The position numbers and the translations under genes were made by a program. DNA of 32,000 bases from Candidatus Saccharimonadota bacterium (GTDB lineage: Bacteria; Patescibacteriota; Saccharimonadia; Saccharimonadales; UBA4665): the NCBI GenBank assembly GCA_016700375.1, contig CP065016.1, positions 810,001-842,000 of the forward strand, given 5' to 3'. Under the pieces are notes generated by a model, which was not told the DNA's origin, searched no databases, and saw only the letters and a program-made list of their open reading frames with translations. Every line of letters starts with the position of its first letter. Position 1 is the stretch's first letter. Below, one piece after another: positions 1 through 18,898 of this stretch.

Positions 1-54
1 CGCATCCCGCTACAAGCGCGCCAAACATCGCAAATCGAAGAAACCGTTGCTTTA

Positions 55-354
55 TCACCCCAGCCCCCTTACCACGAGGGTAACTATAGAATAACCGGAG
101 AGCGCAATCGCAAGACCGATAACTGCATAAAGTATGCCTTTTTTTGCTTGTGCCATCTTTGCGGGATCACCAGAGGCCAATATATAGCGAAGTCCGCTAA
201 TAACGATGATGAGTAGCGCGACCGATCCAGATATGCCAAATACGATACGGAGTATTTCGGGAATAGATTCTTTCGCAATATCTCCTGTAGCACCACTGTT
301 TGGAAGGGGCGAATAATTTATATCTGCAGCAAGATGATAAAACAATTTCATCAT
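55..354 (-). CDS. Small two-TM pilin-like protein (VirB2/TrbC-type T4SS pilin hairpin)
   Basis: 99-aa ORF. Two hydrophobic helices (FGISGSVALLIIVISGL and ILYAVIGLAIALSGYSIVTLVV) flank a short charged loop, ASGDPAKMAQAKKG. This is the TM-loop-TM layout of VirB2/TrbC-like pilins. The start overlaps the stop of the upstream ORF (ATGA at 351-354), indicating translational coupling. Confidence 0.6.
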   Translation of the reverse strand: MMKLFYHLAADINYSPLPNSGATGDIAKESIPEILRIVFGISGSVALLIIVISGLRYILASGDPAKMAQAKKGILYAVIGLAIALSGYSIVTLVVRGLG

Positions 355-1178
355 TTCGAAAGCCTCCCCCCTACATAGGACACGACCGCTGCTGCCACTA
401 TAGCTATTACGAGCCCGACGAGCGCATTAATAATACTCTCACGACCTCTTTTTGTTTTCTCTGGCTCCCCCTGGCTCGTTGTAAGCAATATACCTCCAGC
501 TATAACAAACCCTACCGCAACGAGCCCGGCGATCCGTACTAGTGTGTCTGCAAGCGCTAACACTACGGGGAGCAAGTGACTTTTCGTTCCTGCATCATCA
601 CCCAACAGCTTAAAGTTTGTGACATCACACGTTTTTCCACCTCCGGGACCATCTGCAAACGCTTCAGCCGGGAGATAGGCGAACCAGGGCTTAAGCCCAA
701 GGAACGGTTTTGAACAACGAGAAGCAAGCGACCCCGTGCCGGCTGCAGGAGTAGATGTCTTATTAAGCGCACCCGGTGACATAAACTGTATGCCCGCAAA
801 CAGGAACATGAATACCACGAGGCTTAATAATGCTTTAGATATCTTAGATTTTGCGGCTGCGGCTTTTTGAGGGTCTCCTGCAGATGCCGAATACTGTATC
901 CCCCCCATAATAACCCCAGCAATAATAGCCACCCCAGCAACCATGCTGAACATTTTTATGGTTGGATTAACATACTTAGCAACAAAACAATCCTGCGTGT
1001 CTGAACTATGCCCGATTGGACAACACGTTCTCTGATGTCCCGCAAGGTTTGTTTGACCGGTTGGACATATTGCCGCGTCTCCTTCTGAGGCATATACCTT
1101 CCCTGATAGCGGCATAAGTGCAGCAATCCCGAATGCCAGACCAGCTGCTAGGATAATTAATTTTGTACGGATATTCAT
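351..1178 (-). CDS. Membrane protein with signal peptide and two tandem pilin-like hairpin modules
   Basis: 275-aa ORF with an N-terminal signal-like segment (MNIRTKLIILAAGLAFGIAALMPLSGKVYA). It contains two copies of the TM-[SA]xG[DE]PxK-TM module (SASAGDPQKAAAAKSKI and TSQGEPEKTKRGRESI), the same module as in ORF 55-354. There are 4 Cys after the signal peptide and 2 more in the inter-module linker. Confidence 0.55.
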   Translation of the reverse strand: MNIRTKLIILAAGLAFGIAALMPLSGKVYASEGDAAICPTGQTNLAGHQRTCCPIGHSSDTQDCFVAKYVNPTIKMFSMVAGVAIIAGVIMGGIQYSASAGDPQKAAAAKSKISKALLSLVVFMFLFAGIQFMSPGALNKTSTPAAGTGSLASRCSKPFLGLKPWFAYLPAEAFADGPGGGKTCDVTNFKLLGDDAGTKSHLLPVVLALADTLVRIAGLVAVGFVIAGGILLTTSQGEPEKTKRGRESIINALVGLVIAIVAAAVVSYVGGRLSK

Positions 1179-1323
1179 GCTTATGCACCACTATATAATG
1201 CGCGACAATATCCATCAAGACGTAACGCTATATGTGGCCAGCCAAAACATGCGGTTAGCCACCGACAATTTACAACGAACATACCCGATTAATCTAGAGG
1301 CGCCTTTCGCAAATCTGGTTTTT

Positions 1324-1347
1324 TCTGTGGTAGGTTTAATCTGTGGT
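1324..1347. repeat. 8-bp direct repeat TCTGTGGT x2 (1324-1331, 1340-1347) in the divergent pilin/T4SS intergenic region
   Basis: Read directly: ttTCTGTGGTaggtttaaTCTGTGGTgaac. AATCTG also occurs twice (1312-1317, 1338-1343). The repeat lies in the 380-bp spacer between the divergently transcribed units. Confidence 0.5.
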
Positions 1348-1545
1348 GAACTATGCCCGCCAAACGCTAGTATGATGTATAACTTATCCCGAGACGCCGC
1401 TGGAAGAAATTTTTATATATTTTTTCAATAAATCTATTCTCTGAAGCGTTCGTGTAATTGTTTTGTACTCTTACTATGACGCTCTCGGTAAGTACCAACA
1501 ATCGCGGGGGGTAAGCGCAGTCTTGTGAATACCTCCGAGCTAACG

Positions 1546-1551
1546 TATTAT
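1546..1551 (+). promoter_or_regulatory. -10-like hexamer TATTAT 7 nt upstream of the ATG at 1559 (possible leaderless start)
   Basis: The sequence reads cgTATTATttatagcATG. There is no purine-rich SD between the hexamer and the ATG. Confidence 0.3.
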
Positions 1552-1558
1552 TTATAGC

Positions 1559-4500
1559 ATGAGCAAAAAGAAGCGCACAGCGTCGCTTTTGGGGTTACTA
1601 CTGGTAGTATGTGCTTTTGTGCTATTGCCTACCGTACGGACTTACGCAGCTGTAAGCCCATCTTCTTACCCCGAGGATAAGGCCAAGGCGTTTTATTATG
1701 GATCCTGGTTAATTAACTGTTTTAGCAACGGCAAATACAGTATTGATATGAGTGGCGATGCCAGCGTTAATGCAATGAATGTCGGGCCAGGTGACAGCTT
1801 TGTGACGGGCCTAACGGGAGCCGATCCCAGAAAGTGTAATGATAAATCATTTGCTCTTGATGCTATCCGCCACCTAAATATACCCTGGGCTACGCCACAA
1901 GATACTTTAAACTTCTTGTGTGATATCGGAGCCAAACGGGTGAACGACGGCGAATGTAAATCACTAAGAAACGACTCACAGCTTGGACTCGACGCAAATG
2001 CCGAAACCGGAGAGAAAGTTAGAGCGATTATTAATAGCTCTGCTGGGTATGATGTTTTTGCAGCCTATAGCAACAGTAAGCTGCTGCAATACATCTACTA
2101 TGTAAACTTGGCTTTTCTAAAACAATGCAATGCGGGAGAGAATAATACATCCCTAGTCCTAGCCGAGGATATTACTGACATAGAGGTTCTGCGGAGCGAT
2201 GGAACCTTTGAAACTCAAAGGCGACAATACAACACGGGTTTATATGTTGCGTTTGATGACGAATTTAACGGCCATTGGAATTCGGATGATAAACCCTCGA
2301 AGACTTGTCCTAAAATCGTAGCAGCCGCAAACGAATTAGCCAAGAATCCCGCCGTAGCCCAGGAGTGGAAAAGCAGTTATATGCCCGGTACGGGCGACAG
2401 GCCGGGAACGTGTGAGGATAGGTACGCCGGAAGCACAGACGCATTAAAAGCCTGCCAAGATGGCTTCGCCAACAAAACAAACGCGACCTATTGTAGCGGA
2501 GCTTATCCAAAAATAGCATCTAGGCCAGACAGTTTTACCAACAACGAGGCGTGTCTATGGGGCCAAAGCGATAAAGCTATAGGAGCAACCGGGATTACGC
2601 CGACCCAAAACCCTACTGGATCAACTAACAATTCCGGCGCTGGTGATGCACCGACCAGTCTTTGCGGATTCGACGGCGATTCTATGGAGTGGATAGTTTG
2701 TCCAGTTGCTGCCGCGCTTGAGTCATTCTCGAAGTCTCTGGCAAGCAACATAGAAGGATTGATGTTTTTCCCAACCCAAGACGTTTTTGGTAAAACAGGA
2801 GCGGGCGGCGCTACCGACAACCTTCGTACTGCATGGGCGAGTTTTCGAAACATCGCGATAGCTATCATTGTTATTGCTGGCCTGGCGATGGTGATTAGCC
2901 AAGCGCTTGGTTTTGAGATCTTGGATGCATACACCATACGCAAGTTGTTGCCTCGTCTTGGCGTTGCACTGGTGGGAATCGCGCTTTCTTGGAACCTAAT
3001 GCAGTTCTTTATAGAGCTCACAAATGACCTCGGAAGCTGGACACATGACCTAGTTGTTGGCCCCTTTGCAAATATGCCCGTTGCTAAAATAGACACCACG
3101 AATACGGTCTATAACTGGGCAACTGTACTTGTGGCCATCGTTGTAGGGATACCAAAGCTATACTTTCTGGGCGGAGTTGGTGTTATTACCTTGCTGTTAA
3201 TTGTTGGCCTAATCATTTTTCTGGCCTTTATGCTCTTCGGCTTACGGTGGGTAGTAATTATGCTTTGCCTCCTTTTGGCGCCGTTAGCTATTGCTTCGTA
3301 TGTACTGCCTGGGACGCAGAAGGTATGGGCGTTCTGGAAAAATACCACCATTACTAGCCTGGCAATTTTCCCGGTGATTATGGGGTTACTCGCCTCCGGC
3401 GAGGCAATGGCACGAGTAACGAGTCAGATTGAAAACTTGCCGGGCGGTTACATATTGGTTGTGGTTATATTTGTCGGACCCATAGTACTCATAATTCCAA
3501 TTGCACAGAAATTCGGGGGAGTTCTTGGGGGAGCAATTGGTTGGGCAAGCGGACTTGGCAGCAAAGCTATGGGCAAGGGAAATAAGTTCTTGCATGAGAA
3601 TTCGGAATATCGGAAAGGCGAATATGCCACTGGCGCGAAAAGAGGCCCCGCGCTAGTCACTGGCTATGCACGACGTAGTGCTTTATCTCGTCAGGGGGGT
3701 TTCAGTCTTACTCGCTCTGGAAGACGTCAGTACAGGCAGGCAGAGAAAAAGCTCATTCAAGACGCAGCAGCCGAGCGAGCCGAAAAAGACAAAGGCTTTT
3801 CTCTGGGCGCGACCGACGCGACAATCCCGGCCATTTATGCAAATTCGCGTGGTGATTATTTGCGCGAATATGTTAATAGGAACAGAGCTGCTATGACAGC
3901 GGAAGGGCTCAGTGAAAATCAAATGCAACAGCGTGCTCGAATGCGCATGGGCCAGCTGGAAGCAGGGACTGGAACCGTTATGGGCAGCAGGGCAATGAAA
4001 GCAGCCGCATTCCGTGGTCAAACAATGGATGGTGCGGGGTGGTTCAATGAAGCCACGCACGAAACAGATTTCCAAGCCATAGCTGAGGCCTCCAATCACC
4101 TCATCAAACAAGGGATAATGAGCGACGAGGACATTGGTGGCGTATTGGGTCAAAACCAAGCACGCGCAGATTTTAGTGGTATGACATTCAGTCAGCGCGT
4201 CGGTATCGCCACTATGGGTGAGCGGGGGAATGGCGCCCTGACGGACGAACAACAAAATCTACTTCGTAGCCAATCCTACCAGAGCATGCGCAATAGTCAG
4301 GCCGAGCTCGGTAACTTGCGTACAGCCCGAAAGGTTGCGCGGGAAGGCGGCATGCGCCTCAACGCAACCCTTACTGACAATATGGCCGGTTTTGAAAGCG
4401 GGGGCAACCGACTGCTTACTGGCACCAACGACATGGACACGTTGGCCTCTGAGTTTGCAACTTTCGCAAACTTCCAAGACATGGCTTCAAGTGCTTCTAT

Positions 4501-4774
4501 AGACGCACGGGAACAGTTTGCGACACAGCTGAAACAACAATACTACGCAGAAGAGCTTTCAGACGGAATGCGCACAATACTCCAGCCACTCCTCACAGCG
4601 AGAGGGGGCACAGTATCAACACAGGAAATAATGGACTATTGTCGCGGCAATAGCGACGTAGCAGCAAGCCAAGAACTTATTGATTTATTCACGGCTCGTC
4701 GTCGCGAGTACTCAAGTGGTCGTATGCGTGATGCCGCCGGCAGGGCCGCTATGGTCGATGCGCCGGCTGCATAA
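1559..4774 (+). CDS. Giant polytopic membrane protein, VirB6/TrbL-like T4SS channel component
   Basis: 1071 aa with a signal peptide (MSKKKRTASLLGLLLVVCAFVLLPTVRTYA). An ectodomain of about 400 aa carries 12 Cys. A central block holds at least 5-6 long hydrophobic helices (residues about 430-660, e.g. VITLLLIVGLIIFLAFMLFGLRWVVIMLCLLLAPLAIASYVL). A R/Q/A-rich C-terminal tail of about 400 aa follows. It is the first gene of an operon containing PrgI-like and VirB4 genes. Confidence 0.55.
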   Translation: MSKKKRTASLLGLLLVVCAFVLLPTVRTYAAVSPSSYPEDKAKAFYYGSWLINCFSNGKYSIDMSGDASVNAMNVGPGDSFVTGLTGADPRKCNDKSFALDAIRHLNIPWATPQDTLNFLCDIGAKRVNDGECKSLRNDSQLGLDANAETGEKVRAIINSSAGYDVFAAYSNSKLLQYIYYVNLAFLKQCNAGENNTSLVLAEDITDIEVLRSDGTFETQRRQYNTGLYVAFDDEFNGHWNSDDKPSKTCPKIVAAANELAKNPAVAQEWKSSYMPGTGDRPGTCEDRYAGSTDALKACQDGFANKTNATYCSGAYPKIASRPDSFTNNEACLWGQSDKAIGATGITPTQNPTGSTNNSGAGDAPTSLCGFDGDSMEWIVCPVAAALESFSKSLASNIEGLMFFPTQDVFGKTGAGGATDNLRTAWASFRNIAIAIIVIAGLAMVISQALGFEILDAYTIRKLLPRLGVALVGIALSWNLMQFFIELTNDLGSWTHDLVVGPFANMPVAKIDTTNTVYNWATVLVAIVVGIPKLYFLGGVGVITLLLIVGLIIFLAFMLFGLRWVVIMLCLLLAPLAIASYVLPGTQKVWAFWKNTTITSLAIFPVIMGLLASGEAMARVTSQIENLPGGYILVVVIFVGPIVLIIPIAQKFGGVLGGAIGWASGLGSKAMGKGNKFLHENSEYRKGEYATGAKRGPALVTGYARRSALSRQGGFSLTRSGRRQYRQAEKKLIQDAAAERAEKDKGFSLGATDATIPAIYANSRGDYLREYVNRNRAAMTAEGLSENQMQQRARMRMGQLEAGTGTVMGSRAMKAAAFRGQTMDGAGWFNEATHETDFQAIAEASNHLIKQGIMSDEDIGGVLGQNQARADFSGMTFSQRVGIATMGERGNGALTDEQQNLLRSQSYQSMRNSQAELGNLRTARKVAREGGMRLNATLTDNMAGFESGGNRLLTGTNDMDTLASEFATFANFQDMASSASIDAREQFATQLKQQYYAEELSDGMRTILQPLLTARGGTVSTQEIMDYCRGNSDVAASQELIDLFTARRREYSSGRMRDAAGRAAMVDAPAA

Positions 4775-4808
4775 TAAGAGCGTCTGATAAACCAGAAGTG
4801 GCATCAGC

Positions 4809-4817
4809 TGCTATACT
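4809..4817 (+). promoter_or_regulatory. Extended -10 element TGCTATACT, 9 nt upstream of the ATG at 4827
   Basis: The sequence reads cagcTGCTATACTataaacagtATG. The same 11-mer, TGCTATACTAT, also occurs at 18798 and 18859. Confidence 0.4.
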
Positions 4818-4826
4818 ATAAACAGT

Positions 4827-5960
4827 ATGGCGACGTATAAGGTTTTACAGGATGTTGAGGCAGAGGACAAGCTTGTTGGGCCGTTGACTTTACGGCAGTT
4901 TATCTATGCCGCTATCTCGGCCTTCTTGCTATATCTTTCCTTTTTTGCACTTACAAAAAATGTGGGGTTTTTGCTGATATTTTTCGTTCCGCCCGCACTG
5001 TTTACTGGATTTCTGGCCATACCGTGGCACGGCGACCAGCCCACTGAGGTGTGGGCCATAGCAAAACTGCGCTTTATGTTAAAGCCTCGTAAGCGCATTT
5101 GGGACCAGAGTGGCGCAAAAGAACTAGTGACTATTACGGTGCCGAAGAAAATTGAACGAAGTCTAACAAATGGATTAAGTCAAATAGAGGTTAGGAGCCG
5201 CTTGCATGCTCTTGCCGATACAATCGATAGCCGAGGCTGGGCCGTAAAAAATGTGAATGTAAACCTATCAACGGGTCCGAGCTCTTATTCGACAGCGTCT
5301 GACCGCCTTGTTGATGCAATGTCCCTGCCTCAGGACGTAAGTGGCGTTGACGTACGCGCAACAGACGATATGCTCGACCCAAGCGCAAGTGTAGTAGCAC
5401 AGCATTTTGATTCCATGATTCAAAGCGCCGCTACCGCTCAAAGGCAACAGCTCCTGGAGCAAATGCAGTCCCCTACCGCTCAGTCCACCGCACAATCACC
5501 TCAGAATACCCCCCAGAATGACTATTGGTTTATGCACCAACCCACACCAGTTGCCGGACAGTCTACGTTCAACAATGCCGCCGTGGTTGCACCAGGCATG
5601 ACTACAGCAAGCGAGCCACCCGCTGTCGCTCAAGCGGTAGCTCCCACCGCAGAAGAAGAGGCTCTAATTGTCCAACTAAAAGCAACCAACGAGTCACATA
5701 GCACCGCAAATAATCACCTAAAGCACATCAAAACATCGGCGGAGCTTGCCGAAGAACAACGACTTTTCATGGCACAAAAGGCCGCAGAAGCGGCTGAAAA
5801 ACAGCGGGCCGAAAGACAAAAAGCACAAGTGACTTCAGAGAAGGAGGCTGCTATAATGAACCTAGCAAGAAACGACGATTTAGACGTTGCGACAATTGCT
5901 CGTCAGGCGAAGAAAGAAGTGCAGAGCAATGACGGCGAAGTTGTGATATCACTTCACTAG
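4827..5960 (+). CDS. PrgI-family (VirB3-like) T4SS membrane protein with a long low-complexity and coiled-coil C-terminal extension
   Basis: The N-terminus, MATYKVLQDVEAEDKLVGPLTLRQFIYAAISAFLLYLSFFAL, followed by a second TM, matches the PrgI/VirB3-like signature (acidic EDK..G.LT.RQ then a TM hairpin). The C-terminal half is Q/A/P-rich and then charged and helical (AELAEEQRLFMAQKAAEAAEKQRAERQKAQ). Confidence 0.6.
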   Translation: MATYKVLQDVEAEDKLVGPLTLRQFIYAAISAFLLYLSFFALTKNVGFLLIFFVPPALFTGFLAIPWHGDQPTEVWAIAKLRFMLKPRKRIWDQSGAKELVTITVPKKIERSLTNGLSQIEVRSRLHALADTIDSRGWAVKNVNVNLSTGPSSYSTASDRLVDAMSLPQDVSGVDVRATDDMLDPSASVVAQHFDSMIQSAATAQRQQLLEQMQSPTAQSTAQSPQNTPQNDYWFMHQPTPVAGQSTFNNAAVVAPGMTTASEPPAVAQAVAPTAEEEALIVQLKATNESHSTANNHLKHIKTSAELAEEQRLFMAQKAAEAAEKQRAERQKAQVTSEKEAAIMNLARNDDLDVATIARQAKKEVQSNDGEVVISLH

Positions 5961-5983
5961 ATATAAATGAGGCAATCGTAGGC

Positions 5984-6847
5984 ATGGACCCAAACCAGCA
6001 AACATACGCAGCTCAGATGCCACAACAGGGCATGCCGACACCCCCCTATACGCCCCAGCCACCCGCGCCTGGCCAAATGCCACCGCCAGGCCAACCGGCA
6101 GCCGGTGTCGCCCTAAAAAGTAACCCTAATAGCACCCAAAACACGTTACAGATAGCAGAGATTCGCGACGGCATAGTCATCATGAACAATGGCAGCTATC
6201 GGGCGGTGGTTATGGTCAAAAGCATCAACTTTGACCTCATGAGCCCCCAGGAGCAAGAAGCAACCGAATACGCCTACCAGGGGTTCTTGAACTCGTTGTA
6301 TTTCCCGATACAAATCTTCATACGCTCTCAGAAGGTAGATTTACAGCCGTACGTAGAAAAGCTTGATAAAATCCGCACCGAACACGATAACATGCTTCTC
6401 GCGCTTCTTATGGACGACTACATTGGCTACATAGACCAGCTGGCGCTCCAAACGAACATCATGGATAAGAAGTTTTATATCGCAGTTCCATATGAGCCCG
6501 CGGTAGGCCCAGACAAAGCGCTTACGCAAAGTAAAAACTTTTTCACTGGTTTTGTAGAACTCTTTAGCAAAAACGAGAATCATGTTGTTATTAACGAACC
6601 AGACCTTATGAAAGCAAAGGACGAGCTTAGGAATCGGGTTCAGGCCGTTCTTGGCGGGCTACAGCAGTGTGGCATTCAGGGCCTACCCCTAGACACCCAG
6701 GAGTTAATAGAGCTCTACTACGACACATACAACCCCGACACCGCCACCCGACAGCAACTGAAGAATTTCAACGATTTGACCGCAGAGGTTGTGCAAAAAG
6801 GTGAGGGCATGGCACCACAACAGCACCTACAAAGGGAGCTCGGGTGA
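5984..6847 (+). CDS. Hypothetical T4SS-associated protein; P/Q-rich N-terminus followed by a domain resembling the extreme N-terminal domain of long Gram-positive VirB4 ATPases
   Basis: 287 aa. The first ~45 aa are P/Q-rich. The segment IAEIRDGIVIMNNGSYRAVVMVKSINFDLMSPQEQEATEYAYQGFLNSLYFPIQIFIRSQ then follows the I..I.DGI...G.Y....iNf.L.s.Eq......FLN....Q pattern I recall from the N-termini of ~800-aa Firmicutes VirB4/TraE-type proteins. It has its own SD-like GAGG upstream. The functional call is inference. Confidence 0.45.
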   Translation: MDPNQQTYAAQMPQQGMPTPPYTPQPPAPGQMPPPGQPAAGVALKSNPNSTQNTLQIAEIRDGIVIMNNGSYRAVVMVKSINFDLMSPQEQEATEYAYQGFLNSLYFPIQIFIRSQKVDLQPYVEKLDKIRTEHDNMLLALLMDDYIGYIDQLALQTNIMDKKFYIAVPYEPAVGPDKALTQSKNFFTGFVELFSKNENHVVINEPDLMKAKDELRNRVQAVLGGLQQCGIQGLPLDTQELIELYYDTYNPDTATRQQLKNFNDLTAEVVQKGEGMAPQQHLQRELG

Positions 6848-6920
6848 TGCCATATCCTTTTTTGGTGCTTATTTCCTTGCCGAGATTATTGTTCTCTGAT
6901 GCAAGAGGAGCTTTTATCTA

Positions 6921-8846
6921 ATGGGTTTCGGCAAGAAAAAACCAGCATTAGACCCCATTGCCCTTGCGCAAGCCCAGCAAGCCAAAGAACAGGCCGAGGT
7001 AAATGAAGCCTTTCGTAGAGGCATTACGGCGCTGCGAGATTTTATTGCACCCAGTAGTATTGAGTTTTTTAGTACCTACTTCCAGATTGGCACCCGCCTT
7101 GCGCGCACCTATTACGTTTACGGCTACCCGAGACAGATTTACACAGGCTGGTTAAGCGGATTGGTTAACCTCGACGAGGTGATGGATCTTTCCATTTATG
7201 TATACCCCGTGGAAAGTCAGGTTGTGCTTGAAAACCTCCGCAAGAAAGTCACTCAACTCGAAGCCGGTCTCCAAATTGATTCCGAGAAAGGTCGGGTGCG
7301 TGACCCTGCCAAACAGGCACAAATTCTGGATGCAGAAGAAATGCGCGACAAGCTTCAGGTGGGGGAGGAGCGATTCTTTCGATTTGGTTTGTACTTTACC
7401 ATATACGCAGCAAGCCAAGATGAACTGGAGTTTGTCAGCCACAAGGTCGAGAGTATGCTCGGCCAGCAACTGGTGTATAGTAAGGCGGCAACCTCCCAGC
7501 AAGAACAGGGACTTAATAGCGTCGTACCGCAGATGGTTGACCAGTTACAAATACGTCGGAACATGAGTACGGGGGCAATTAGCACCAGTTTTCCGTTCAC
7601 AAGCGCCGACCTTAGTCAAGACAACGGCATTCTATATGGCATAAATATGCACAATAGCGGCCTCGTTATTTTCGACCGGTTCAGTCTCGAAAACGGCAAT
7701 TCTGTTGTGTTTGCAAAGTCCGGCGCAGGGAAAAGCTTTACAGTTAAGCTCGAGGCGCTGCGTAGCCTCATGTTTGGCACCGAAATCTTTATCGTTGACC
7801 CCGAAAACGAGTACGAACGCATGTGTGACGCTGTTGCGGGCGCGTACGTTCGCCTGAGCCTTAATTCTACAACACGAATTAACCCGTTCGACCTACCCCA
7901 GGTAGTGGATGGTGAGGAGGCAGACAATGCCCTCCGCTCAAACCTCATCACACTCCACGGACTCTTGCGCCTCATGATGGGTGGCGCTCAAGCCCAATTA
8001 CTTGGGGGCAACGGAGCGCTCGCTCCAGCACTGTCTCCTACAGAAGAGGCGGACCTCGACGCGGCACTTATAGACACCTACGCGAAGGCTGGTATTACAC
8101 AAGACCCCCTGACGCATTCTTCGGTGCCACCAACCATCGCTGACCTGTATGATACATTGCTTCATATGGGCGGTACCGGCCCCCAGCTTGCACAGCGACT
8201 CCGCAAATATACAAGCGGTACCTTCGCGGGCATCTTTAGCCAGCAGAGCAACATCAATATCAACAATCCATTGGTGGTCTTCAACATTCGCGACCTCGAA
8301 GACGAACTGCGACCAGTTGCTATGTACATTGTCCTAAACTACATCTGGAACAAAACGAAGAGCGACCAGAAGAAACGCATTCTTATTGTCGACGAGGCGT
8401 GGCAGCTGATGAAATACGAAGACAGTGCCAACTTCCTGTTTAGTCTTGCCAAACGAGCACGAAAGTACAATCTCGGCATCACCACTATCACGCAGGACGT
8501 CGAAGACTTCATGGGCTCCAGAATGGGGCGCGCCATTGTCGCAAACGCCAGCATGCAAATCCTCCTCAAACAATCAAGCAGCGCAGTAGATGTCCTTAGT
8601 GATGTGTTCAAACTAACCGACGAGGAAAAGAAGCGCCTTGGACAATTCCCGGTCGGCCAGGGGCTATTCTTCGCCGGCCAAAACCATGTGCATATACAGG
8701 TGGTAGCAAGCCCTACGGAAACAGGCCTCATTACAACGAATCCTCAACAAGTCCAAGCCATGAAGCAGGGCGACATGAGTCAGGCAAGCGGAACTATAGA
8801 TCTTGAAAACCAATTGTACCCTGGGAGTACAAATAATTTGTCATAG
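6921..8846 (+). CDS. virB4: VirB4/TraE-family T4SS ATPase
   Basis: 641 aa. N-domain motif FIAPSSIEFFSTYFQIGTRLARTYYVYGYPRQIYTGWLSGL. Walker A is FAKSGAGKSFT and Walker B is KRILIVDEAWQL. The sequence TTITQDVEDF lies downstream. An SD (AGAGGAG) lies 11 nt upstream of the ATG. Confidence 0.85.
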   Translation: MGFGKKKPALDPIALAQAQQAKEQAEVNEAFRRGITALRDFIAPSSIEFFSTYFQIGTRLARTYYVYGYPRQIYTGWLSGLVNLDEVMDLSIYVYPVESQVVLENLRKKVTQLEAGLQIDSEKGRVRDPAKQAQILDAEEMRDKLQVGEERFFRFGLYFTIYAASQDELEFVSHKVESMLGQQLVYSKAATSQQEQGLNSVVPQMVDQLQIRRNMSTGAISTSFPFTSADLSQDNGILYGINMHNSGLVIFDRFSLENGNSVVFAKSGAGKSFTVKLEALRSLMFGTEIFIVDPENEYERMCDAVAGAYVRLSLNSTTRINPFDLPQVVDGEEADNALRSNLITLHGLLRLMMGGAQAQLLGGNGALAPALSPTEEADLDAALIDTYAKAGITQDPLTHSSVPPTIADLYDTLLHMGGTGPQLAQRLRKYTSGTFAGIFSQQSNININNPLVVFNIRDLEDELRPVAMYIVLNYIWNKTKSDQKKRILIVDEAWQLMKYEDSANFLFSLAKRARKYNLGITTITQDVEDFMGSRMGRAIVANASMQILLKQSSSAVDVLSDVFKLTDEEKKRLGQFPVGQGLFFAGQNHVHIQVVASPTETGLITTNPQQVQAMKQGDMSQASGTIDLENQLYPGSTNNLS

Positions 8847-8848
8847 TC

Positions 8849-11800
8849 ATGGCACGAGACGAAGACCGCCAATACAAACCAAAGAGCCTGCAGACACTAG
8901 ACAATCAAGACATGTCCCCGCAGCAACTTGAGGACCTCTACAACGCTCCGGCCGCTGACGACCTTGAGCGCAATTTTGCCATGCCTTCAGCGACACAGTC
9001 AGGGTCGGACATTGCAGACGAAAATGCCATCGATGACCTAGAAGACTCTTTTAATGGTCCCGATGCCAAAGAGTCTGGGTCGGCTAAGCTTGATTCTGCA
9101 AAAAATCTATCCGAAAAGGAGAGTCAGGGCGCGGATAAGCTAAATTACACCGGTACCGAAGCGGACGAGAAAGAAGCGTTGGACAAGAAAGACAAAAAAT
9201 CGAAACTAAAAAAATCATTTCTTTCGCGGCGAAAAAAGGCAATGATGTTTGGTGGTTTTGGGGCGTTACTTGGAGGAGGTGGGATACTTGGTTTTTCAAT
9301 GTTTCTGACACTCCAGTTTATACACATACCCCTAAACGTTCACGATGCATATAACGCTATCTCTAGGCGGGCTGTCGAAAAAATGGGTGACAATATATTC
9401 CATTATTATGTTGTGAAATATTTAGTACCCGGTATGGTAAAGAATGGCTGCACTACGACGCGCCGTACCAAGTCCTGCGCAGACGTAAGCGGAAAAACAA
9501 ACATAGTTACTGCCAACTTCCGGGCTTGGCGCGACGCTAACATAGAAGGAAAACTCGCTGAAAAGGGTATCGAGATCCGGCTTGAAGCAACCTCGAAAGG
9601 AAACAAAGTGTTCTTGACTACGCCCGAAATTCGAGAAGGTGTCGAGCTTGGAACCTACACGGGAAAATCTCGTGATTTCGAAGATAAGGCATTTGCACAA
9701 CTTCGTGGAAAAAAAGAGATTCACCGCGAGTTAAGCCGAACCATGTCCGCCCTGACCCTGAGAGATAGAATGTACATAAGGTTTATAGGCATGCCTTTGA
9801 TTGACCGTAAGTATTCTCCCCGATATTGTATCGTCGCATGTGAAACAAGAAAGAAAATAAAAGCAACAAAGACCGAGCTCCTCTCTATAGCGAAGGGTCG
9901 TTTTATTGAACGAGTTATTACCCCCTTAAATACCTCTATCGGTCTCTCTTTAGAGTGCGCGCTCGATGGTTTCACGTGTGGCGACCTTGACAGCTCGGAA
10001 AGCACGGGAGAGAGGAGAACGAAATACCAAAAAGATCTTCAGTTAAGACTTGTGGATTTACAATCAAAATACGGTAAGGCTTCTATAGAAGAACTGAACA
10101 AGCAGGCCGATGAGATTCGCTCGAAGGGGGCAGTGGAATACCTCATAAAACAAATTGCGGGAGAGACCACCGCCAAAATAGCCGTGAAAGTAATTCCAGT
10201 AGTTGGGTGGATTGACCTTGGTGCTAGCTTGATTTCCGGCGCCCAAAAAGCAGCACCCACTATACTACACATGAACTACGTTATGAATGAGACGGCAATG
10301 GTTGGTACCGCTACAATGGCGCTAACTTATGCGAGCGAGCTGATGAGCGGATCCGCCGACCCCGCCACCCTCAATTCCTTTTCTCTTCTGTATGGAGCCG
10401 ACGCATCGCGTGACCAGGGGGGAGGAAGCGCTCAAAGCAGCCCTTTATATGGCGCAATCATGGGCGGGGGTACCCAAAAACCGGTAGCCTCTCTTTTCCC
10501 CAGGGCATACGCAGAAAGCACCGCGACGAATGCCATGTGTGACGATGGCGAAGGGTATCCAGCAGGCGCACTTATTTGTCCGAATGTGGCAATCGGATCC
10601 CCCACTGGTACTCTTGCCTTTGTTACCAAGGTTGCTGTAGATGGAATTACAAACAACCCCTTTCTCGCATTTCCGGGTTTCGTCGCAAACGTATGGGTTA
10701 ATATTAGGGACGGGATACTGAGTATTTTTTCTTTCATTGAAGAGCCTCTCTCTAAGCTTGTTGCGGCAATTACACCCCAGCAACTTACTGAAGTGCTAGA
10801 GTGGCTAAAAAACGAAGTGTTTGCAAAAATATTTGTCCTTGCCTCTACCCCAAACCAAAGCGGTGCACGGTATTTTGAGACAATGGTTGGCGGAATTAAC
10901 ATACTCACAAACTACACACGCCACTTTGGCCTCGGAGGAAAGGTTTTAAACTCAACACAAGTCAAGGCCTTATATAAGGCGGATGCCGAACAAAAACATT
11001 ATGAATATTCTAAACTACCCTTGTATGCCAGGATGTTCAGCAAAGAGAACAGTAATTCTCTTGTGTCAAAAATAGCTATGAGCATCCCTAGTGGCTCTGG
11101 CGCGGCACAAAGTGGCCTAATTGCGTCCACATTAAACCCTTTACGTTCTTTAGCTAGTTCTATTGATGCGGTTACTTCTAGAGACGCTTCTGCGGCTGCA
11201 AAGTTGCCCGAAAAAGACCCATTTGGTATAACCCAATATGGTTACGCCGAGGATGACTCAATATTTATTGCTGACCCAGAAGCCTACTGGGAGTCGGCAA
11301 AGTGTGATGACCCCAATACTACTGTTACGTGGGGGAACTCAACGACGCGCATAAATGACATAAGTCAACTCCCCGAACACGACCAAACTAATCCATGCCT
11401 CTTGATCCGTGCTTCAGTCGCGACCAATGGCGGTCTGTATGATAAAAGCCTTCTCCCCAGTCCGCCCGCGACAAATACCGCTGTTACACTCGGAGGGGAG
11501 CTTGGTACTGTTGGGAACTTTACATTCCCGCTAAAAACCACTCAAACCAGAATCAAGACGGCGCAATATCAGGATGCAACCTATAAGCTGACTAAGTGGG
11601 CTTGGTGTTACACCAGTCAAACAAATTGTCACCACGACTATCCCGCAGCAGATATATTTGACAACCCAGGCACAGAGGTCGTGGCTGCCGTAGGGGGTAC
11701 CGTAGTAAGATATAGACCAAAGCCATCGTGTTCCCCAGAGCGTGGGGGGTCTCCCAGTATACAAATTAAGGGTGATGACGGCAATTACTATTTTTATACT

Positions 11801-12010
11801 CATTTTCGAGGAGGCTCATTATTACAAAGCCAGGAGGGTGCTCGTATAGACCAGGGCCAAACCTTGGGTGTTATAGGTGAACCAGCCTGTGCACAGGGCA
11901 CGCAACCACACGTTCACTTCCAGGCATACTCAAGCCCAATAACGGGTAATCCTACTTCTTCAAACGTGCAACCAATCCTCATAAAGGCGTTCGGGGCGTT
12001 GCCGCAATGA
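8849..12010 (+). CDS. Large membrane-anchored cell-wall hydrolase with a C-terminal M23 (LytM-type) metallopeptidase domain; VirB1/PrgK-type functional analogue
   Basis: 1053 aa with an acidic, disordered N-terminus of about 125 aa. A K-rich stretch and one TM follow (RRKKAMMFGGFGALLGGGGILGFSMFLTLQFI). The C-terminal M23 motifs are HHDYPAADI, YTHF and QPHVHFQ. The start lies 2 nt after the VirB4 stop. Confidence 0.7.
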   Translation: MARDEDRQYKPKSLQTLDNQDMSPQQLEDLYNAPAADDLERNFAMPSATQSGSDIADENAIDDLEDSFNGPDAKESGSAKLDSAKNLSEKESQGADKLNYTGTEADEKEALDKKDKKSKLKKSFLSRRKKAMMFGGFGALLGGGGILGFSMFLTLQFIHIPLNVHDAYNAISRRAVEKMGDNIFHYYVVKYLVPGMVKNGCTTTRRTKSCADVSGKTNIVTANFRAWRDANIEGKLAEKGIEIRLEATSKGNKVFLTTPEIREGVELGTYTGKSRDFEDKAFAQLRGKKEIHRELSRTMSALTLRDRMYIRFIGMPLIDRKYSPRYCIVACETRKKIKATKTELLSIAKGRFIERVITPLNTSIGLSLECALDGFTCGDLDSSESTGERRTKYQKDLQLRLVDLQSKYGKASIEELNKQADEIRSKGAVEYLIKQIAGETTAKIAVKVIPVVGWIDLGASLISGAQKAAPTILHMNYVMNETAMVGTATMALTYASELMSGSADPATLNSFSLLYGADASRDQGGGSAQSSPLYGAIMGGGTQKPVASLFPRAYAESTATNAMCDDGEGYPAGALICPNVAIGSPTGTLAFVTKVAVDGITNNPFLAFPGFVANVWVNIRDGILSIFSFIEEPLSKLVAAITPQQLTEVLEWLKNEVFAKIFVLASTPNQSGARYFETMVGGINILTNYTRHFGLGGKVLNSTQVKALYKADAEQKHYEYSKLPLYARMFSKENSNSLVSKIAMSIPSGSGAAQSGLIASTLNPLRSLASSIDAVTSRDASAAAKLPEKDPFGITQYGYAEDDSIFIADPEAYWESAKCDDPNTTVTWGNSTTRINDISQLPEHDQTNPCLLIRASVATNGGLYDKSLLPSPPATNTAVTLGGELGTVGNFTFPLKTTQTRIKTAQYQDATYKLTKWAWCYTSQTNCHHDYPAADIFDNPGTEVVAAVGGTVVRYRPKPSCSPERGGSPSIQIKGDDGNYYFYTHFRGGSLLQSQEGARIDQGQTLGVIGEPACAQGTQPHVHFQAYSSPITGNPTSSNVQPILIKAFGALPQ

Positions 12011-13275
12011 GGTCAATATACAGCAACCGCATAAAAAGCACCCTGACCATATTTGGATCGTTGATGGTACTCGGCAACGCTGTTATCGCCACCGCCGAAC
12101 CACTTGATGGTGACGCTCTTGATATGGTTTTGATTGGTAGTGTATGGTATGAAAAAAACCAGGCACTCCTAGGCTGCCTTGCGGGTGGTGCCAACATACC
12201 AAATGGGACAAGCGAACAAAACGGGAAGGCTATTTTTGATTATCTTACACAACCAGGACGGCTAACGCCCGTACAGGCCTCGGGAGTCATCGGTAATATG
12301 ATGGTAGAGTCAGGATTACTACCACAAAGAAAACAGGGTACGCAACCAAGTCAGATAACAACCGCGGAGGAGTTTCTTGCTAGTGGCTCTGGTGTGGGGT
12401 GGGGGCTGGTGCAGTGGACCCCTGGTTCGAAGTTTATTAACTCTATCGATCCTCAAACCAAAACTGCTGCTCATACCGTTGCGGAGGCAAACAATCTTGG
12501 CGTGCAGATAGCCTTCGTCTGGAGTCAGCTCGAGGGTAAAACTTCGATACCGGAAAAGGGGGCAGGGGATGATTTAAAACAACAAACCGACTTACGTGAA
12601 GCTGTTCTCGCATTCCAAGGGAATAAATTAGCAGGAGGGAAGTACATAGGATATGAACGGCCACTTGACCAGTCTGGCACTGTCAGTGCCCGCCTTTCCT
12701 ACGCAATAGATGCGCTGAAAAAATATGGTTCAATCCCATCTACTAGCCCGTCCCCTGACTCAAGTTGTGGGGGTGGTGGGGGTTCGAGCGCTTTCCTAAA
12801 CGGGAACTACAGCCTACCTGTTAAGAAAAAGTGGTTTGACCAACACCCAGAGTGGTTTTCAAAAGCGCACCACGACTACCCCGCCGCTGATATACCCGTT
12901 CCTTTAGGGGAAGAGGTCTATGCTGTAGCAGGCGGGAAAATTACATCGGCACCCGCTGGCACAGCCACAGGTGGTCTTGGTTATGGTGTTATAATCGACG
13001 TTGGGGGAGGGGTAACAATGCAGTATGGGCATGGTAGCGACGGTGGCTCAGTTCCTGGGGCAAAACAAGGGGACACGGTTAAAGCAGGTCAGCTAATAAT
13101 GCACTCGGCAAGTACGGGGCATTCAACCGGTCCACATCTTCATCTTGGTATCAGAGTTAATGGTAAAGCGGTCTGTCCCCAAACCCTCCTGATGGCCATT
13201 GGGAGTGGCGCTAGCATACCAGATATTAAACAGCTGCCCACAGTCGGCTGTACATACGTCTGGGGGAAAAAGTAA
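12007..13275 (+). CDS. Secreted bifunctional peptidoglycan hydrolase: phage-tail-lysozyme-like N-domain plus M23 peptidase C-domain
   Basis: 422 aa with a signal/anchor (TLTIFGSLMVLGNAVIATA). The N-domain carries TPVQASGVIGNMMVESGLLP...GWGLVQWTPGSKF, the signature of phage tail-tip/ICE lysozyme domains. A G-rich linker (CGGGGGSS) follows. The M23 motifs are HHDYPAADI...GHSTGPHLHLGIRVNG. An ATGA overlap with the upstream gene lies at 12007-12010. Confidence 0.7.
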   Translation: MRSIYSNRIKSTLTIFGSLMVLGNAVIATAEPLDGDALDMVLIGSVWYEKNQALLGCLAGGANIPNGTSEQNGKAIFDYLTQPGRLTPVQASGVIGNMMVESGLLPQRKQGTQPSQITTAEEFLASGSGVGWGLVQWTPGSKFINSIDPQTKTAAHTVAEANNLGVQIAFVWSQLEGKTSIPEKGAGDDLKQQTDLREAVLAFQGNKLAGGKYIGYERPLDQSGTVSARLSYAIDALKKYGSIPSTSPSPDSSCGGGGGSSAFLNGNYSLPVKKKWFDQHPEWFSKAHHDYPAADIPVPLGEEVYAVAGGKITSAPAGTATGGLGYGVIIDVGGGVTMQYGHGSDGGSVPGAKQGDTVKAGQLIMHSASTGHSTGPHLHLGIRVNGKAVCPQTLLMAIGSGASIPDIKQLPTVGCTYVWGKK

Positions 13276-14777
13276 TGCGGCAAAAACAACAAATACAGCT
13301 ATTGGCCGTTGGCATATTCGCTTGTTTGTTGTTTATGTGTATGTCTTGGGCCTGGGGACACTCATATGTGTACATTGTGAATGTGTCGGGAGGTATGCGA
13401 ACATACAAAATCATTGGGGAGTCTGGGGCAACCACCTCCTTCAATTCATCGGACAAGATCATAAAGAGGGTCGTCAAGAACGACACATACCAGGTTGTGG
13501 TTCAGCAAGGTGCGAAGAACTTCTTTGCTATACAAAAGACTAGGGGTTTGTTGAGGACCACATCTATAAATGTATCGCTTGTTGCAGAAAAATCACGAAG
13601 TTTTGTTGGCAATAATCCATCCCCCTGCTCCTTCTATAATGGTGACGCGATGTTTTCTGCATCCTGCGATGACTCTGCGTACAGAATAGAGAAGCACTTG
13701 CCTGCATCTGGCTACACACCTTCTTATAGTTCATTATTGCCCACAAATAGTCTATTTGGGGATTTGGGCGGTGTTGCAATAACAAAATCGGGTGATGCTG
13801 TTGCTTTACTAAAAGATACTGAGGGTGTGGCGGGCTACTCACTGCAAAGAATTTCTCCGGAGTTAGTTGGTGCTGACCGTGTACGGATTGGTGCCCTTGA
13901 TCCAAGCTATAGGTATGAGATGCGTCCTTATATGTCTGGTGTTCTGGTTTATGAAAGTACAAGGGCAGATTATTTCTATATCAATCCAGAAACCATGTCT
14001 TCCATCCGCCTCCGACCCGAGCCGCCCCACACTACTGGTCTCAGTCCAGCCAGTGTCCGTACACACAAAGACGATATTGCAATCTTATATACCGACACTA
14101 CGGCGACTGAGAGCTTAAATCCAGAGAATGACATGACGGCTACAAAAGACCTCCCTGGCACATCCGAGGTTATCATATACGCCAATAATAAACAAAGGCA
14201 TATCGTTTTGCCTAAAATATTCTCGACGGCAATAACCTGTGCACAGTATCGACTTTGTGCAATAAATTCGGTCGGCATGACGGTGTATGATGTCAAGGGT
14301 TCGGAACCAAAACAACTCTATACAATTCCTGGGATAGTCGACGTATTTGAAACCTCGTCGTCAAGCCTTCGTATAGTTTCCTCACTTGGTATTATGTCTT
14401 ATGATCCGTTGCGTGATTCGGGTTCTTATGATTACACTTTTGGAGATTATCGCCTGTGTGGTTTTTCGCCTGCAGCAAATGATACGTATCTACTTTGCCT
14501 AATTGATACTCGTCAGGAAAAAATTGGACTACTTGTTGAGGAGAGGGAAACAACAGGTGTAGTTCCTATAGACAAGATTGTATTGAATGTATTGCGCTCT
14601 AAAGCCGTTTCGTCTGTGTCTGTATATAAAAATCTTGTTATTGTAACTCCGGAATATTATGACCAAATCTCTGGGCGAGCAATTGATGAGGCTAGTGTTA
14701 AAAAAAACCTAAAGGCTGTTATCGACAAGATGGCGTTCCCTAATGATTATACTGTGGTTAATAGTGCTGAATTGTAA
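13275..14777 (+). CDS. Hypothetical bitopic membrane protein (N-terminal TM, ~470-aa beta-rich ectodomain); last gene of the T4SS operon
   Basis: 500-aa ORF whose start overlaps the upstream stop (TAATG at 13273-13277). The N-terminal TM is LLAVGIFACLLFMCMSWAW. I recognise no family motif. It is visibly more A+T-rich than its neighbours. Confidence 0.6.
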   Translation: MRQKQQIQLLAVGIFACLLFMCMSWAWGHSYVYIVNVSGGMRTYKIIGESGATTSFNSSDKIIKRVVKNDTYQVVVQQGAKNFFAIQKTRGLLRTTSINVSLVAEKSRSFVGNNPSPCSFYNGDAMFSASCDDSAYRIEKHLPASGYTPSYSSLLPTNSLFGDLGGVAITKSGDAVALLKDTEGVAGYSLQRISPELVGADRVRIGALDPSYRYEMRPYMSGVLVYESTRADYFYINPETMSSIRLRPEPPHTTGLSPASVRTHKDDIAILYTDTTATESLNPENDMTATKDLPGTSEVIIYANNKQRHIVLPKIFSTAITCAQYRLCAINSVGMTVYDVKGSEPKQLYTIPGIVDVFETSSSSLRIVSSLGIMSYDPLRDSGSYDYTFGDYRLCGFSPAANDTYLLCLIDTRQEKIGLLVEERETTGVVPIDKIVLNVLRSKAVSSVSVYKNLVIVTPEYYDQISGRAIDEASVKKNLKAVIDKMAFPNDYTVVNSAEL

Positions 14778-15833: not shown

Positions 15834-15839
15834 GCGGTC

Positions 15840-15845
15840 AGTATA
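15840..15845 (-). promoter_or_regulatory. -10 hexamer TATACT 6 nt upstream of the recF ATG (possible leaderless recF transcript)
   Basis: The minus strand reads ggcTATACTgaccgcATG inside the 20-nt dnaN-recF spacer. No SD is present. Confidence 0.35.
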
Positions 15846-15853
15846 GCCTACGC

Positions 15854-16945: not shown

Positions 16946-16953
16946 ATGGCTAC

Positions 16954-17216
16954 CTTTCCACACAACGAACTAATGAAAAAATTATTTTTATACCAAGAAG
17001 TAGTTATTATTAGGGATGTGGAAAATGAGGAAAAACCAAGAATAACAGAGGGAAAATAAACTCTAACCTTGTGGATAGTGCTGCCCAAAACACAAGGTCT
17101 GAACTGAGCATAAAGGCCTGTACTATACCCAGTCGACACTAAACCTACCAACGCCGTGTGTGTAAAACCAAGAAAGCGAAGCATAGTATCCACAAAGCGC
17201 CCACAACCAATCCACA
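16954..17216. promoter_or_regulatory. DnaA-box cluster plus A+T-rich stretch in the dnaA-dnaN spacer (candidate oriC half with DUE)
   Basis: 9-mers near the consensus TTATCCACA: CTTTCCACA 16954-16962, TGTGGAAAA 17017-17025, TGTGGATAG 17070-17078, GTATCCACA 17186-17194, CAATCCACA 17208-17216. An A+T-rich run spans 16971-17013 (taatgaaaaaattatttttataccaagaagtagttattatta). Confidence 0.6.
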
Positions 17217-17230
17217 ACCCACAAACAAAC

Positions 17231-18622: not shown

Positions 18623-18671
18623 ACGGTACGCTCCACGTTTCTTAGGTAAACTATACTGAAGGAGACGAAAG

Positions 18672-18794: not shown

Positions 18795-18797
18795 CTT

Positions 18798-18806: not shown

Positions 18807-18858
18807 ATGGCAAGAATAGCAAATATATAAGGCTATGGCGCGCTGGGCGACCGGGCCG

Positions 18859-18867: not shown

Positions 18868-18898
18868 ATATGTCAGCTAATAACATTAGGAAGAGACC

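Follow-up and report, generated by a model that had tools for sequence, protein, structure and literature searches.

The window analyzed here, a 32,000-nt stretch of contig CP065016.1 (positions 810,001 to 842,000 of the forward strand) from a Candidatus Saccharimonadota bacterium, carries at its positions 2-14777 the genes of a type IV secretion system (T4SS), arranged in two divergent, tightly packed units. The minus-strand unit is an array of VirB2-type pilin genes, and the plus-strand unit is a seven-gene operon (1559-14777) encoding an extended VirB6-like protein, a PrgI/VirB3 protein, a TrsD-like piece that corresponds to the N-terminal part of VirB4, a VirB4 ATPase, two peptidoglycan hydrolases, and a membrane-anchored beta-propeller protein. 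Successive genes of the operon are separated by gaps of 52, 23, 73, and 2 nt and then overlap by 4 nt (ATGA at 12007) and 1 nt (TAATG at 13273); the last one stops at 14777, directly against recF, which stops at 14778 on the other strand. The map of open reading frames (ORFs) and the junction sequences agree with the initial annotation of this DNA, which had drawn two divergent, coupled units with these limits and overlaps. Instead of the ten consecutive genes that it counted, nine complete ones are present, and a tenth, a further pilin gene with a GTG start at 58, is cut by the edge of the window. Identical NCBI entries exist for window proteins (IPP75_04295 and IPP75_04325, from a Candidatus Saccharibacteria metagenome-assembled genome). 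The locus was compared with 16 related loci (numbered among L002-L017), of which L002, CP064992.1, is the closest complete genome, its VirB6-like protein being 88% identical over the best segment. The T4SS genes of CP064992.1 contain many frameshifts, which look like long-read indel errors.

Components of the locus

The pilin gene nearest to the operon encodes a fused double pilin of 275 aa (351..1178, minus strand), which matches PF18895 T4SS_pilin in two stretches (7.7e-16) and consists, in this order, of a signal peptide, a Cys-rich stretch, a first pilin domain (~72-138), the linker FLGLKPWFAYLP, and a second pilin domain (~201-274). This protein represents a conserved family of more than 70 homologous clusters of similar length, with 41-88% identity and with invariant linker motif and cysteines. 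Its gene overlaps by 4 nt, at 351-354, that of a 99-aa VirB2-type pilin (55..354, minus strand), which has two hydrophobic helices by hydropathy (31-63 and 73-99) and matches PF18895 (1.3e-12), TrbC (3.5e-4), and the NCBIfam Mbov_0395 pilin-like family (1.7e-7); the double pilin reaches 1.6e-10 and 40.5 bits with the Mbov_0395 family, for which the cut-off is 40. Only the first 19 codons of the third gene of the array lie in the window (2..58, minus strand; its GTG start at 58 forms a GTGA overlap with the stop of the 99-aa pilin gene), and their translation, VIKQRFLRFAMFGALVAGC, looks like a signal peptide. At this position, L002 has a gene for a 139-aa PF18895 pilin, with two more pilin genes beyond it, and thus contains five pilin genes and six pilin domains, against three PF18895 domains in two genes, plus the truncated third gene, in the window. 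Both VirB2-like pilins of the initial annotation are of the VirB2 type, and their number is a lower bound, given the cut third gene and the five genes of L002.

The first gene of the operon encodes a polytopic membrane protein of 1071 aa (1559..4774, plus strand), described as extended VirB6-like on the basis of hydropathy, an AlphaFold2 (AF2) model, and a Foldseek search. A signal/anchor helix is followed by a Cys-containing N-terminal outer domain, a helical membrane core (~380-700), and a helical C-terminal domain (~750-1064); the mean confidence (pLDDT) of the model is 66, with values above 80 in the membrane core and the C-terminal domain. When the model was compared with 350,542 PDB chains, the top four matches were TrwI/VirB6 of R388, which are marginal (E 0.05-0.2, probability 0.90-1.0, TMt up to 0.46). 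For the protein itself, Pfam gave no match; the TrbL profile matches 7 of its 45 relatives (best E, 0.0026), and the precomputed label PF19590 TrbL_3 is found on the identical NCBI protein and on relatives; its family profile retrieved only coiled-coil noise from the PDB sequences. VirB6-like is therefore the probable, not the proven, identity of the giant to which the initial annotation had given this name: the fold ranking and the TrbL matches of relatives speak for it, and a family match of its own is missing.

The second gene encodes a PrgI/VirB3-like protein of 377 aa (4827..5960, plus strand), which matches PF12666 PrgI (4.4e-11 over residues 5-91) and has an N-terminal membrane hairpin (hydrophobic segments at 24-67) and a long Q/A-rich tail. 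The next two genes, judged by their profile matches, make up a split VirB4, as do TrsD and TrsE in pGO1. The first of these, a TrsD-like protein of 287 aa (5984..6847, plus strand), would be the detached N-terminal domain, since it matches only N-terminal positions of the NCBIfam VirB4/TrsD profiles (VirB4_plasma 98-288 of 894, 2.7e-6; conju_CD1110 2-95 of 752, 3.3e-4; TrsD 15-142 of 201, 3.7e-4), as the initial annotation had claimed. Its orthologues carry the precomputed label PF26593 TraC-like, and its comparison with the adjacent VirB4 ATPase revealed no similarity. The VirB4 ATPase itself (641 aa; 6921..8846, plus strand) is devoid of the usual N-terminal domain and covers positions 174-733 of the 752 of NCBIfam conju_CD1110 (2.1e-107, 360 bits, cut-off 325), with a further match to P-loop_TraG (6e-28) and with Walker A (SGAGKS) and Walker B (ILIVDEAW) motifs that are intact in translation. 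Because this protein is 81-98% identical to the VirB4s of loci with the same architecture, among which L002-L004 are named Saccharibacteria/Saccharimonadales records, we infer that it belongs inside the Patescibacteria clade. In L005, a distant relative, a gene of the 23S rRNA intervening-sequence protein family (2520-2879, minus strand) lies between the PrgI and TrsD-like genes, on the strand opposite to theirs, and interrupts the otherwise conserved operon.

Two peptidoglycan hydrolases, both recognized as such in the initial annotation, come next. The first is a giant bitopic protein of 1053 aa (8849..12010, plus strand) composed of a cytoplasmic N terminus, one membrane helix (~137-158), a body of ~750 aa, and a C-terminal M23 peptidase head (Peptidase_M23, 1.2e-9 at 934-1028); a profile of the body searched against the PDB found the peptidase head only and nothing for the body. 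The second, secreted or anchored, is a two-domain enzyme of 422 aa (12007..13275, plus strand) that combines Phage_lysozyme2 (PF18013, 3.9e-21) with M23 (PF01551, 9.9e-19) and aligns to lysostaphin and LytM-type M23 structures. The HxH motif is kept in both M23 domains, and the first zinc-binding His motif is displaced (HHDYPAAD). Indeed, HHDYPAADI replaces the canonical HxxxD zinc-ligand motif in the two proteins, and the corresponding DNA segments (11630-11656 and 12868-12894) are 89% identical over 27 nt, which suggests either that these domains form an M23 subfamily of their own or that the two hydrolase genes underwent gene conversion. Among the relatives, the giant has a homologous body (~750-850 aa) and exchanged peptidase heads, of the M23 type in the window, L007, L011, and L016, VanY in L004, L005, and L017, and M74 in L009, with none detected in L003 and L012. 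Similarly, the second hydrolase keeps Phage_lysozyme2 and changes its partner, which is M23, NlpC/P60, an SGNH esterase, or GH3 plus M23.

The operon ends with a membrane-anchored beta-propeller protein of 500 aa (13275..14777, plus strand), which is modeled by AF2 (pLDDT 84, pTM 0.81) as a membrane helix, a small beta-sandwich, the beta-propeller, and a small C-terminal alpha/beta domain, and for which the fold matches are generic propellers only. The protein contains six conserved cysteines and is therefore extracellular. Presented as an orphan in the initial annotation, it turned out in a full scan with a hidden Markov model to have at least 535 cluster representatives (535 at E<=1e-3 and 448 at E<=1e-30), all of ~500 aa, and to occupy a fixed position between the lysozyme gene and recF. 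In the 12 further loci that contain a propeller (L002 and L005-L015), its gene follows the lysozyme gene without exception; in those with downstream DNA, recF comes next or is separated from it by one small ORF. L003 and Southlakia epibionticum have no propeller gene and possess two small proteins in its place.

In the profile searches, T4SS_pilin, PrgI, VirB4, Peptidase_M23, and Phage_lysozyme2 matched far beyond chance, which upholds the corresponding assignments of the initial annotation; among the VirB2, VirB3, and VirB6 assignments, the first two were recovered and the VirB6-like protein had no Pfam match of its own. VirB7, VirB9, VirB10, and VirB11 had no matches on the window ORFs, in agreement with the view of a Gram-positive-type minimal T4SS that lacks the VirB7/9/10 core and is, unusually, combined with VirB2-like pilins. 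A PHROGs search found nothing beyond the hydrolase domains, and the tRNA and Rfam scans of the window were empty.

Fixed position and relation to known systems

We consider it likely that the locus is a chromosomal T4SS of Saccharibacteria, a member of the Patescibacteria clade derived from the monoderm conjugation machinery of mating-pair formation class FATA (MPF-FATA), and that it is fixed beside the origin and is not a conjugative element. On its right side, Pfam identifies on the minus strand recF (14778-15833), dnaN (15854-16963), a 98-aa ORF (16942-17238), and dnaA (17231-18679), which together form the right boundary (14778..18679). The contact with recF-dnaN-dnaA reported in the initial annotation is thus real, and the recF-side junction is kept in ten other loci: the order recF-dnaN-dnaA is common to L005, L007, L008, L011, and L016, and the recF junction is also present in L003, L006, L009, L012, and L013. 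The junction persists in loci with a propeller protein only 22-32% identical, and the place of the locus is conserved across relatives with identities of 22-27% for the propeller and 67-71% for DnaA. Two clusters of DnaA-box-like sites (17017-17194 and 18672-18774) flank dnaA and define a candidate oriC (17017..18774, unstranded). Sites within one mismatch of TTATCCACA number 16, where 6.7 are expected and where none of the shuffles attained as many; of these sites, six fall within the two clusters. Since the clusters stand on both sides of dnaA, the end of the operon would be ~2-4 kb from the likely origin.

No coupling protein (T4CP), relaxase, integrase, or transposase was found on any ORF of the 32-kb window with Pfam and NCBIfam, and a search for flanking att-like or oriT-like repeats yielded only short imperfect chance repeats, so that the absence of VirD4, mobility genes, and flanking repeats stated in the initial annotation holds for the whole window. 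GC content is uniform across the window, without a shift. An ordinary integrated conjugative element (ICE), whose coupling protein, relaxase, integrase, and att sites would lie outside the window, could be suspected from the score of VirB4, which is above the curated cut-off of the CD1110 ICE-type family, from the left edge, which cuts the locus, and from a sharp change of divergence at the right border in one strain pair. However, the left flank of L002 consists of three more pilin genes than the two complete ones of the window and then of a ComFC-like gene, a PD-(D/E)XK nuclease gene, hypothetical genes, and carA; the 7.4 kb to the left of its pilin array contain no VirD4, relaxase, integrase, or transposase, the first three being the genes that the initial annotation had thought might lie just beyond the left edge. 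Furthermore, the recF junction is identical in the loci with highly divergent propellers, neither repeats nor a compositional shift was found, and a Patescibacteria survey counts only 109 relaxases (PMC12102498). The ICE reading, largely refuted by the left flank of L002, the fixed recF junction, and the absence of repeats, is in our opinion extremely improbable. Gene content, recF junction, and published interpretation concur with the proposal of the initial annotation that this is a domesticated host-interaction machine.

The system is already known from descriptions of 2023-2025, which include the demonstration that growth on host bacteria depends on it, and the window provides a further member of it, not a new kind. 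The earlier remark that T4SS-like loci had been noted in Saccharibacteria is confirmed by the publications, in which the interpretation given by the initial annotation is already found for Saccharibacteria and Patescibacteria (PMC10633639, PMC12102498, PMC12857230). In S. epibionticum ML1, an "apparent T4SS" (SEML1_0006-0019), closest to Gram-positive conjugative systems, was described (Wang et al. 2023, Cell; PMC10633639), with an essential series of pilins and without coupling and relaxase proteins; nearly all orthologues were essential by transposon sequencing (Tn-seq) in coculture, including the pilins, both hydrolases, and the giant (PMC10633639). Based on the same order of recF, hydrolases, giant, VirB4, TrsD-like, PrgI, VirB6, pilins, and comFC in S. 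epibionticum and L002, the window locus is orthologous to SEML1_0004-0019. Both organisms belong to the same phylum-level group, both have the T4SS directly after dnaA-dnaN-recF, and both clusters comprise a lysozyme-type hydrolase, a protein of ~1100 aa with a DD-peptidase-like head, VirB4, TrsD-like, PrgI, extended VirB6, divergent pilins, and comFC, without a coupling protein or relaxase. They differ in that S. epibionticum has two extended VirB6 proteins (SEML1_0011 and SEML1_0013) instead of one and an NTF2-like protein (SEML1_0012) that has no counterpart here; two small exported proteins (prealbumin/BT0923-like and PEGA) replace the 500-aa propeller; the second hydrolase is made of two lysozyme-like domains and a cysteine protease rather than of lysozyme and M23; and the first two pilin domains, fused into one gene in the window, are separate there. 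The window thus offers a second architecture to compare with that of S. epibionticum, with a single VirB6, a fused double pilin, a propeller accessory, and M23 heads.

The survey by Quinonero-Coronel et al. (2025) generalizes these features across Patescibacteria: MPF-FATA ancestry, TrsD, PrgI, VirB2 arrays, rare relaxases, and proximity to dnaA (PMC12102498). The window resembles the systems described there by its MPF-FATA-related VirB4, by the TrsD-like protein, which is the most frequent neighbor in the survey, by the PrgI-type VirB3, by a VirB2 array (of 2-11 genes in the survey) without relaxase, and by the presence of dnaA, dnaN, rnpA, and rpmH near virB4. Nothing observed here contradicts the survey, in the available portion of which the propeller family, the swapping of heads, and the identity step at recF do not appear. 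The system has been called a newcomer to the T4SS superfamily in a 2025 review (PMC12857230), and its role "completely unknown" in a 2024 perspective (PMC11665869). Much of bacterial diversity consists of Patescibacteria, whose cells live in attachment to other microbes, and this T4SS is among the few machines shown to be essential for their lifestyle.

Among the MPF-FATA systems themselves (Trs of pGO1/pSK41, the CTn2-type ICE of CD1110, and Prg of pCF10), the likeness lies in a VirB4 above the CD1110 cut-off, a PrgI-type VirB3, a VirB4 N-terminal domain existing as a separate TrsD-like protein in pGO1, a large membrane-anchored wall hydrolase, and the lack of VirB7/9/10. In contrast, those systems have a coupling protein, relaxase/oriT, and mobility, they display adhesins and no VirB2 pilins, and their hydrolases are of the SLT/CHAP type instead of lysozyme2/M23. 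The mycoplasma ICE (Mbov_0395-0397; NF045849, NF045889, and NF045975) is a wall-less monoderm system that also has a small pilin-like protein beside VirB4; the window pilins match its pilin-like model (1.6e-10, at the cut-off), and the best match of the TrsD-like protein is the N terminus of the mycoplasma VirB4, whereas that element is mobile and devoid of wall hydrolases. These matches are weak and provide a lead, not a membership. VirB2-type pilins, VirB3, VirB4, and a membrane core of VirB6 fold are shared with the diderm type IVA systems (VirB of Agrobacterium and Trw of R388), from which the window locus is distinguished by the single membrane of the cell and by VirB5 and VirB7-VirB11, which were not detected here. 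That a T4SS is workable without VirD4 is documented by the T4CP-less Ptl of Bordetella, VirB of Brucella, and ComB of Helicobacter (PMC12102498, PMC12857230, PMC11665869).

A possible pilus-building function and its rivals

Pilins, VirB3, a split VirB4, a VirB6-like protein, wall hydrolases, and a surface propeller are present, and parts for processing DNA or recruiting substrates are locally missing. The gene set would correspond to the needs of building a VirB2-type pilus and not to those of recruiting DNA, a reading whose chances we estimate to be roughly even. Pilus biogenesis in diderm systems is powered by the ATPase VirB4, with the pilins entering at the VirB6/VirB3/VirB4 assembly; the coupling protein is required for the transfer of substrates and is dispensable for making the pilus. 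In the proposed mechanism, a VirB4 hexamer would dock to the membrane via the TrsD-like piece and PrgI/VirB3, pull the pilins out of the membrane, and feed them onto the extended-VirB6 platform, while the lysozyme and metallopeptidase heads would cut a passage through the peptidoglycan of the cell itself and probably also through that of the host. The product would be a hollow tube that reaches the host cell and serves as an anchor and as a conduit for material between epibiont and host, and the variable surface parts would be tuned to the host envelope. The presence of at least three pilin genes here and of five in L002, together with the conserved double pilin, supports the pilus idea. Conjugative pili have a width of 8.6-9 nm. 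In Mycosynbacter amalyticus, a wastewater Saccharibacterium, cryo-electron tomography (cryo-ET) showed a tube that ends in a barbed tip, measures 8.6-9 nm across and 61-70 nm in length, and runs from the inner membrane into the host beside thinner type IV pili; the authors left it unassigned (PMC11880426).

Several points weigh against this interpretation of the locus. The VirB6 assignment is weak at the sequence level, as detailed above, and neither a VirB8-like (NTF2) protein nor a VirB5-like tip protein was found in the locus. VirB8 and VirB5 are both needed for pilus formation in diderm models. Indeed, the locus has no separate VirB8-like gene of the NTF2 fold, the propeller model contains no NTF2 domain, and a PDB search with the profile of the body of the giant yields nothing. 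The non-canonical first zinc-ligand motif means that activity is not assured for either M23 domain, and it is we who connect the pilin array with the cryo-ET tube, as a lead and not a test. Furthermore, the essentiality data come from S. epibionticum, which belongs to a different genus from the window organism (PMC10633639), and VirD4-like genes exist far from virB4 in most Patescibacteria according to the survey (PMC12102498), so that a distant one may be encoded elsewhere in the genome of the window organism.

Such a distant VirD4-like protein is at the core of a rival explanation that we find rather unlikely, in which it would recruit cytoplasmic effectors or toxins for injection into the host bacterium and the pilus would serve for attachment only. 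This protein-effector translocator is modeled on the bacteria-killing T4SSs of the Xanthomonas/Stenotrophomonas type, and published speculation favors effector delivery (PMC10633639, PMC11665869), to which the survey adds VirD4 homologs in most Patescibacteria genomes, far from virB4 (PMC12102498). However, the same survey reports that the T4CP homolog of S. epibionticum is not essential while the T4SS genes are (PMC12102498), which argues against classical T4CP-dependent export; in addition, no effector/immunity-like gene pairs are visible in the locus and no T4CP lies within the 32 kb. The machine might instead work inward, like ComB of Helicobacter or Ced of Sulfolobus, and import from the host DNA, nucleotides, or other building blocks which the epibiont is unable to synthesize, a possibility that we judge quite improbable. 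ComB is a precedent of a T4CP-less T4SS that imports DNA (PMC11665869), and both L002 and S. epibionticum (SEML1_0021, K02242) have a ComFC-like gene immediately past the pilin array. The weak partial matches to the CedB and CedD ATPase models, on the other hand, involve the common P-loop region only (55.9 bits against a cut-off of 700 and 28.1 against 600, respectively). The comFC gene of S. epibionticum is non-essential, and deletion of comEC there abolished competence and left viability intact (PMC10633639, PMC12857230); the essential role is thus independent of ComEC, which argues against classical DNA uptake.

Still less credible to us, indeed very unlikely, is a self-directed envelope machine, in which hydrolases, propeller, and pilin-like proteins would remodel the wall of the epibiont itself during division or budding, without host contact. 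The giant and both hydrolases count among the essential proteins of S. epibionticum, and machineries for division and sporulation often contain M23 and lysozyme domains (matches to SpoIIQ, EnvC, and NlpD), but a tight operon with VirB4, VirB3, VirB6, and pilins has no precedent in division, and the variation of the peptidase heads between close relatives is easier to reconcile with a variable target outside the cell than with the wall of the cell itself.

Divergence of the locus, its promoters, and its neighbors

Compared with L005, the proteins of the window show a gradient of identity: 82% for VirB4, 72% for the TrsD-like protein, 68% for DnaA, 62% for DnaN, 51% for RecF, 47% for PrgI, 39% for the lysozyme-M23 protein, and 27% for the propeller, with no detectable similarity between the body of the giant and its L005 counterpart. 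The cytoplasmic motor is more conserved than DnaA, and the exposed parts change fast, surface parts diverging much faster than VirB4. A step of identity was observed between window positions 7374-24800 and L007 (Logan SRR29870300), which is a contig of a near-identical strain obtained from another sample. Nearly the whole length that begins with recF and ends with the GDSL gene is 90-100% identical in nucleotides, with a synonymous divergence (dS) of 0.10-0.29; the exceptions to the right of the junction are two 60-nt windows in recF at ~80% and a short GDSL stretch at 69%. Within ~60 nt of the 14.8-kb junction, where the convergent stop codons meet, identity drops to 60-88% across the T4SS genes, and VirB4, 98.4% identical at the protein level, nevertheless has a dS of 1.14. 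No such step exists with L016, an evenly diverged relative used as a control. A second close strain pair was sought and none was found, and the step rests on a single pair; it suggests either replacement of the cassette by recombination or a chimeric metagenome contig.

A more far-reaching explanation, which we offer tentatively and hold to be doubtful, is that the locus as a whole constitutes a strain-variable host-range cassette: the pilins would build the 9-nm tube, the surface parts (pilins, outer domain of VirB6, giant with its exchangeable head, partner domains of the lysozyme, and propeller) would be matched to the host envelope, and whole alleles would recombine between lineages, the swaps being homologous recombination anchored in the conserved recF-oriC flank. 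If this is true, the machine, although domesticated with regard to its position, would still undergo horizontal transfer of its content. Altogether, the comparisons suggest that the fast-evolving, domain-swapping parts may be those that face the host, that strains may exchange the cassette, and that the pilins may form the cryo-ET tube.

Should the origin lie at dnaA, transcription of the 13-kb T4SS operon would meet the leftward replication fork head-on, and the pilin genes, recF, dnaN, and dnaA would be co-directional with this fork. The head-on orientation, also present in S. epibionticum, is unusual for an essential operon and is possibly relevant to its fast evolution.

The divergent intergenic region (1179..1558, unstranded) carries promoter-like sites toward both units, TTGTGA-17-TATTAT at 1523-1551 on the plus strand and TTGATG-17-TATAGT at 1218-1190 on the minus strand; over the scanned region, the number of promoter consensus matches, like that of terminators, was not above the shuffled expectation. 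The -10-like boxes end a few bases before the starts of the double pilin and VirB6-like genes, and likewise upstream of 4827, with no Shine-Dalgarno sequence, and the double pilin and VirB6-like transcripts may be leaderless. An 84-aa ORF at 1177-1431, which has no profile matches and sits in the promoter region, was treated as spurious. The divergent region of L002 (8621-10000) is ~1 kb longer and contains a 332-aa ORF without a Pfam match.

On the other side of the operon, the 98-aa ORF (16942-17238, minus strand) fills the gap between dnaA and dnaN, overlaps both genes, and has no family match. It is kept in L007 (91% amino acid identity, dN/dS of 0.36), L016 (98 aa), and L005 (80 aa), and it contains three DnaA-box-like sites (17017-17194); it may encode a small conserved protein or else be part of the origin and stay open by chance. 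Beyond dnaA lie rpmH (18900-19034), rnpA, yidC, and jag. A 990-aa protein with a GDSL/SGNH hydrolase domain is encoded after jag (20938-23910, plus strand) and is 94% identical to its L007 counterpart, the 69% stretch mentioned above being a single variable patch with indels at 22062-22354 of its gene; L005 has at the neighboring position a gene for an 885-aa protein of the PIG-L deacetylase family. The segment 24501-31767 is a cell-surface polysaccharide cluster with three GT4 glycosyltransferases, a GDP-mannose 4,6-dehydratase, an NAD-dependent epimerase/dehydratase, and an Acyl_transf_3 O-acyltransferase, and it is at the start of this cluster, at ~24.2 kb, that the L007 contig departs from the window.

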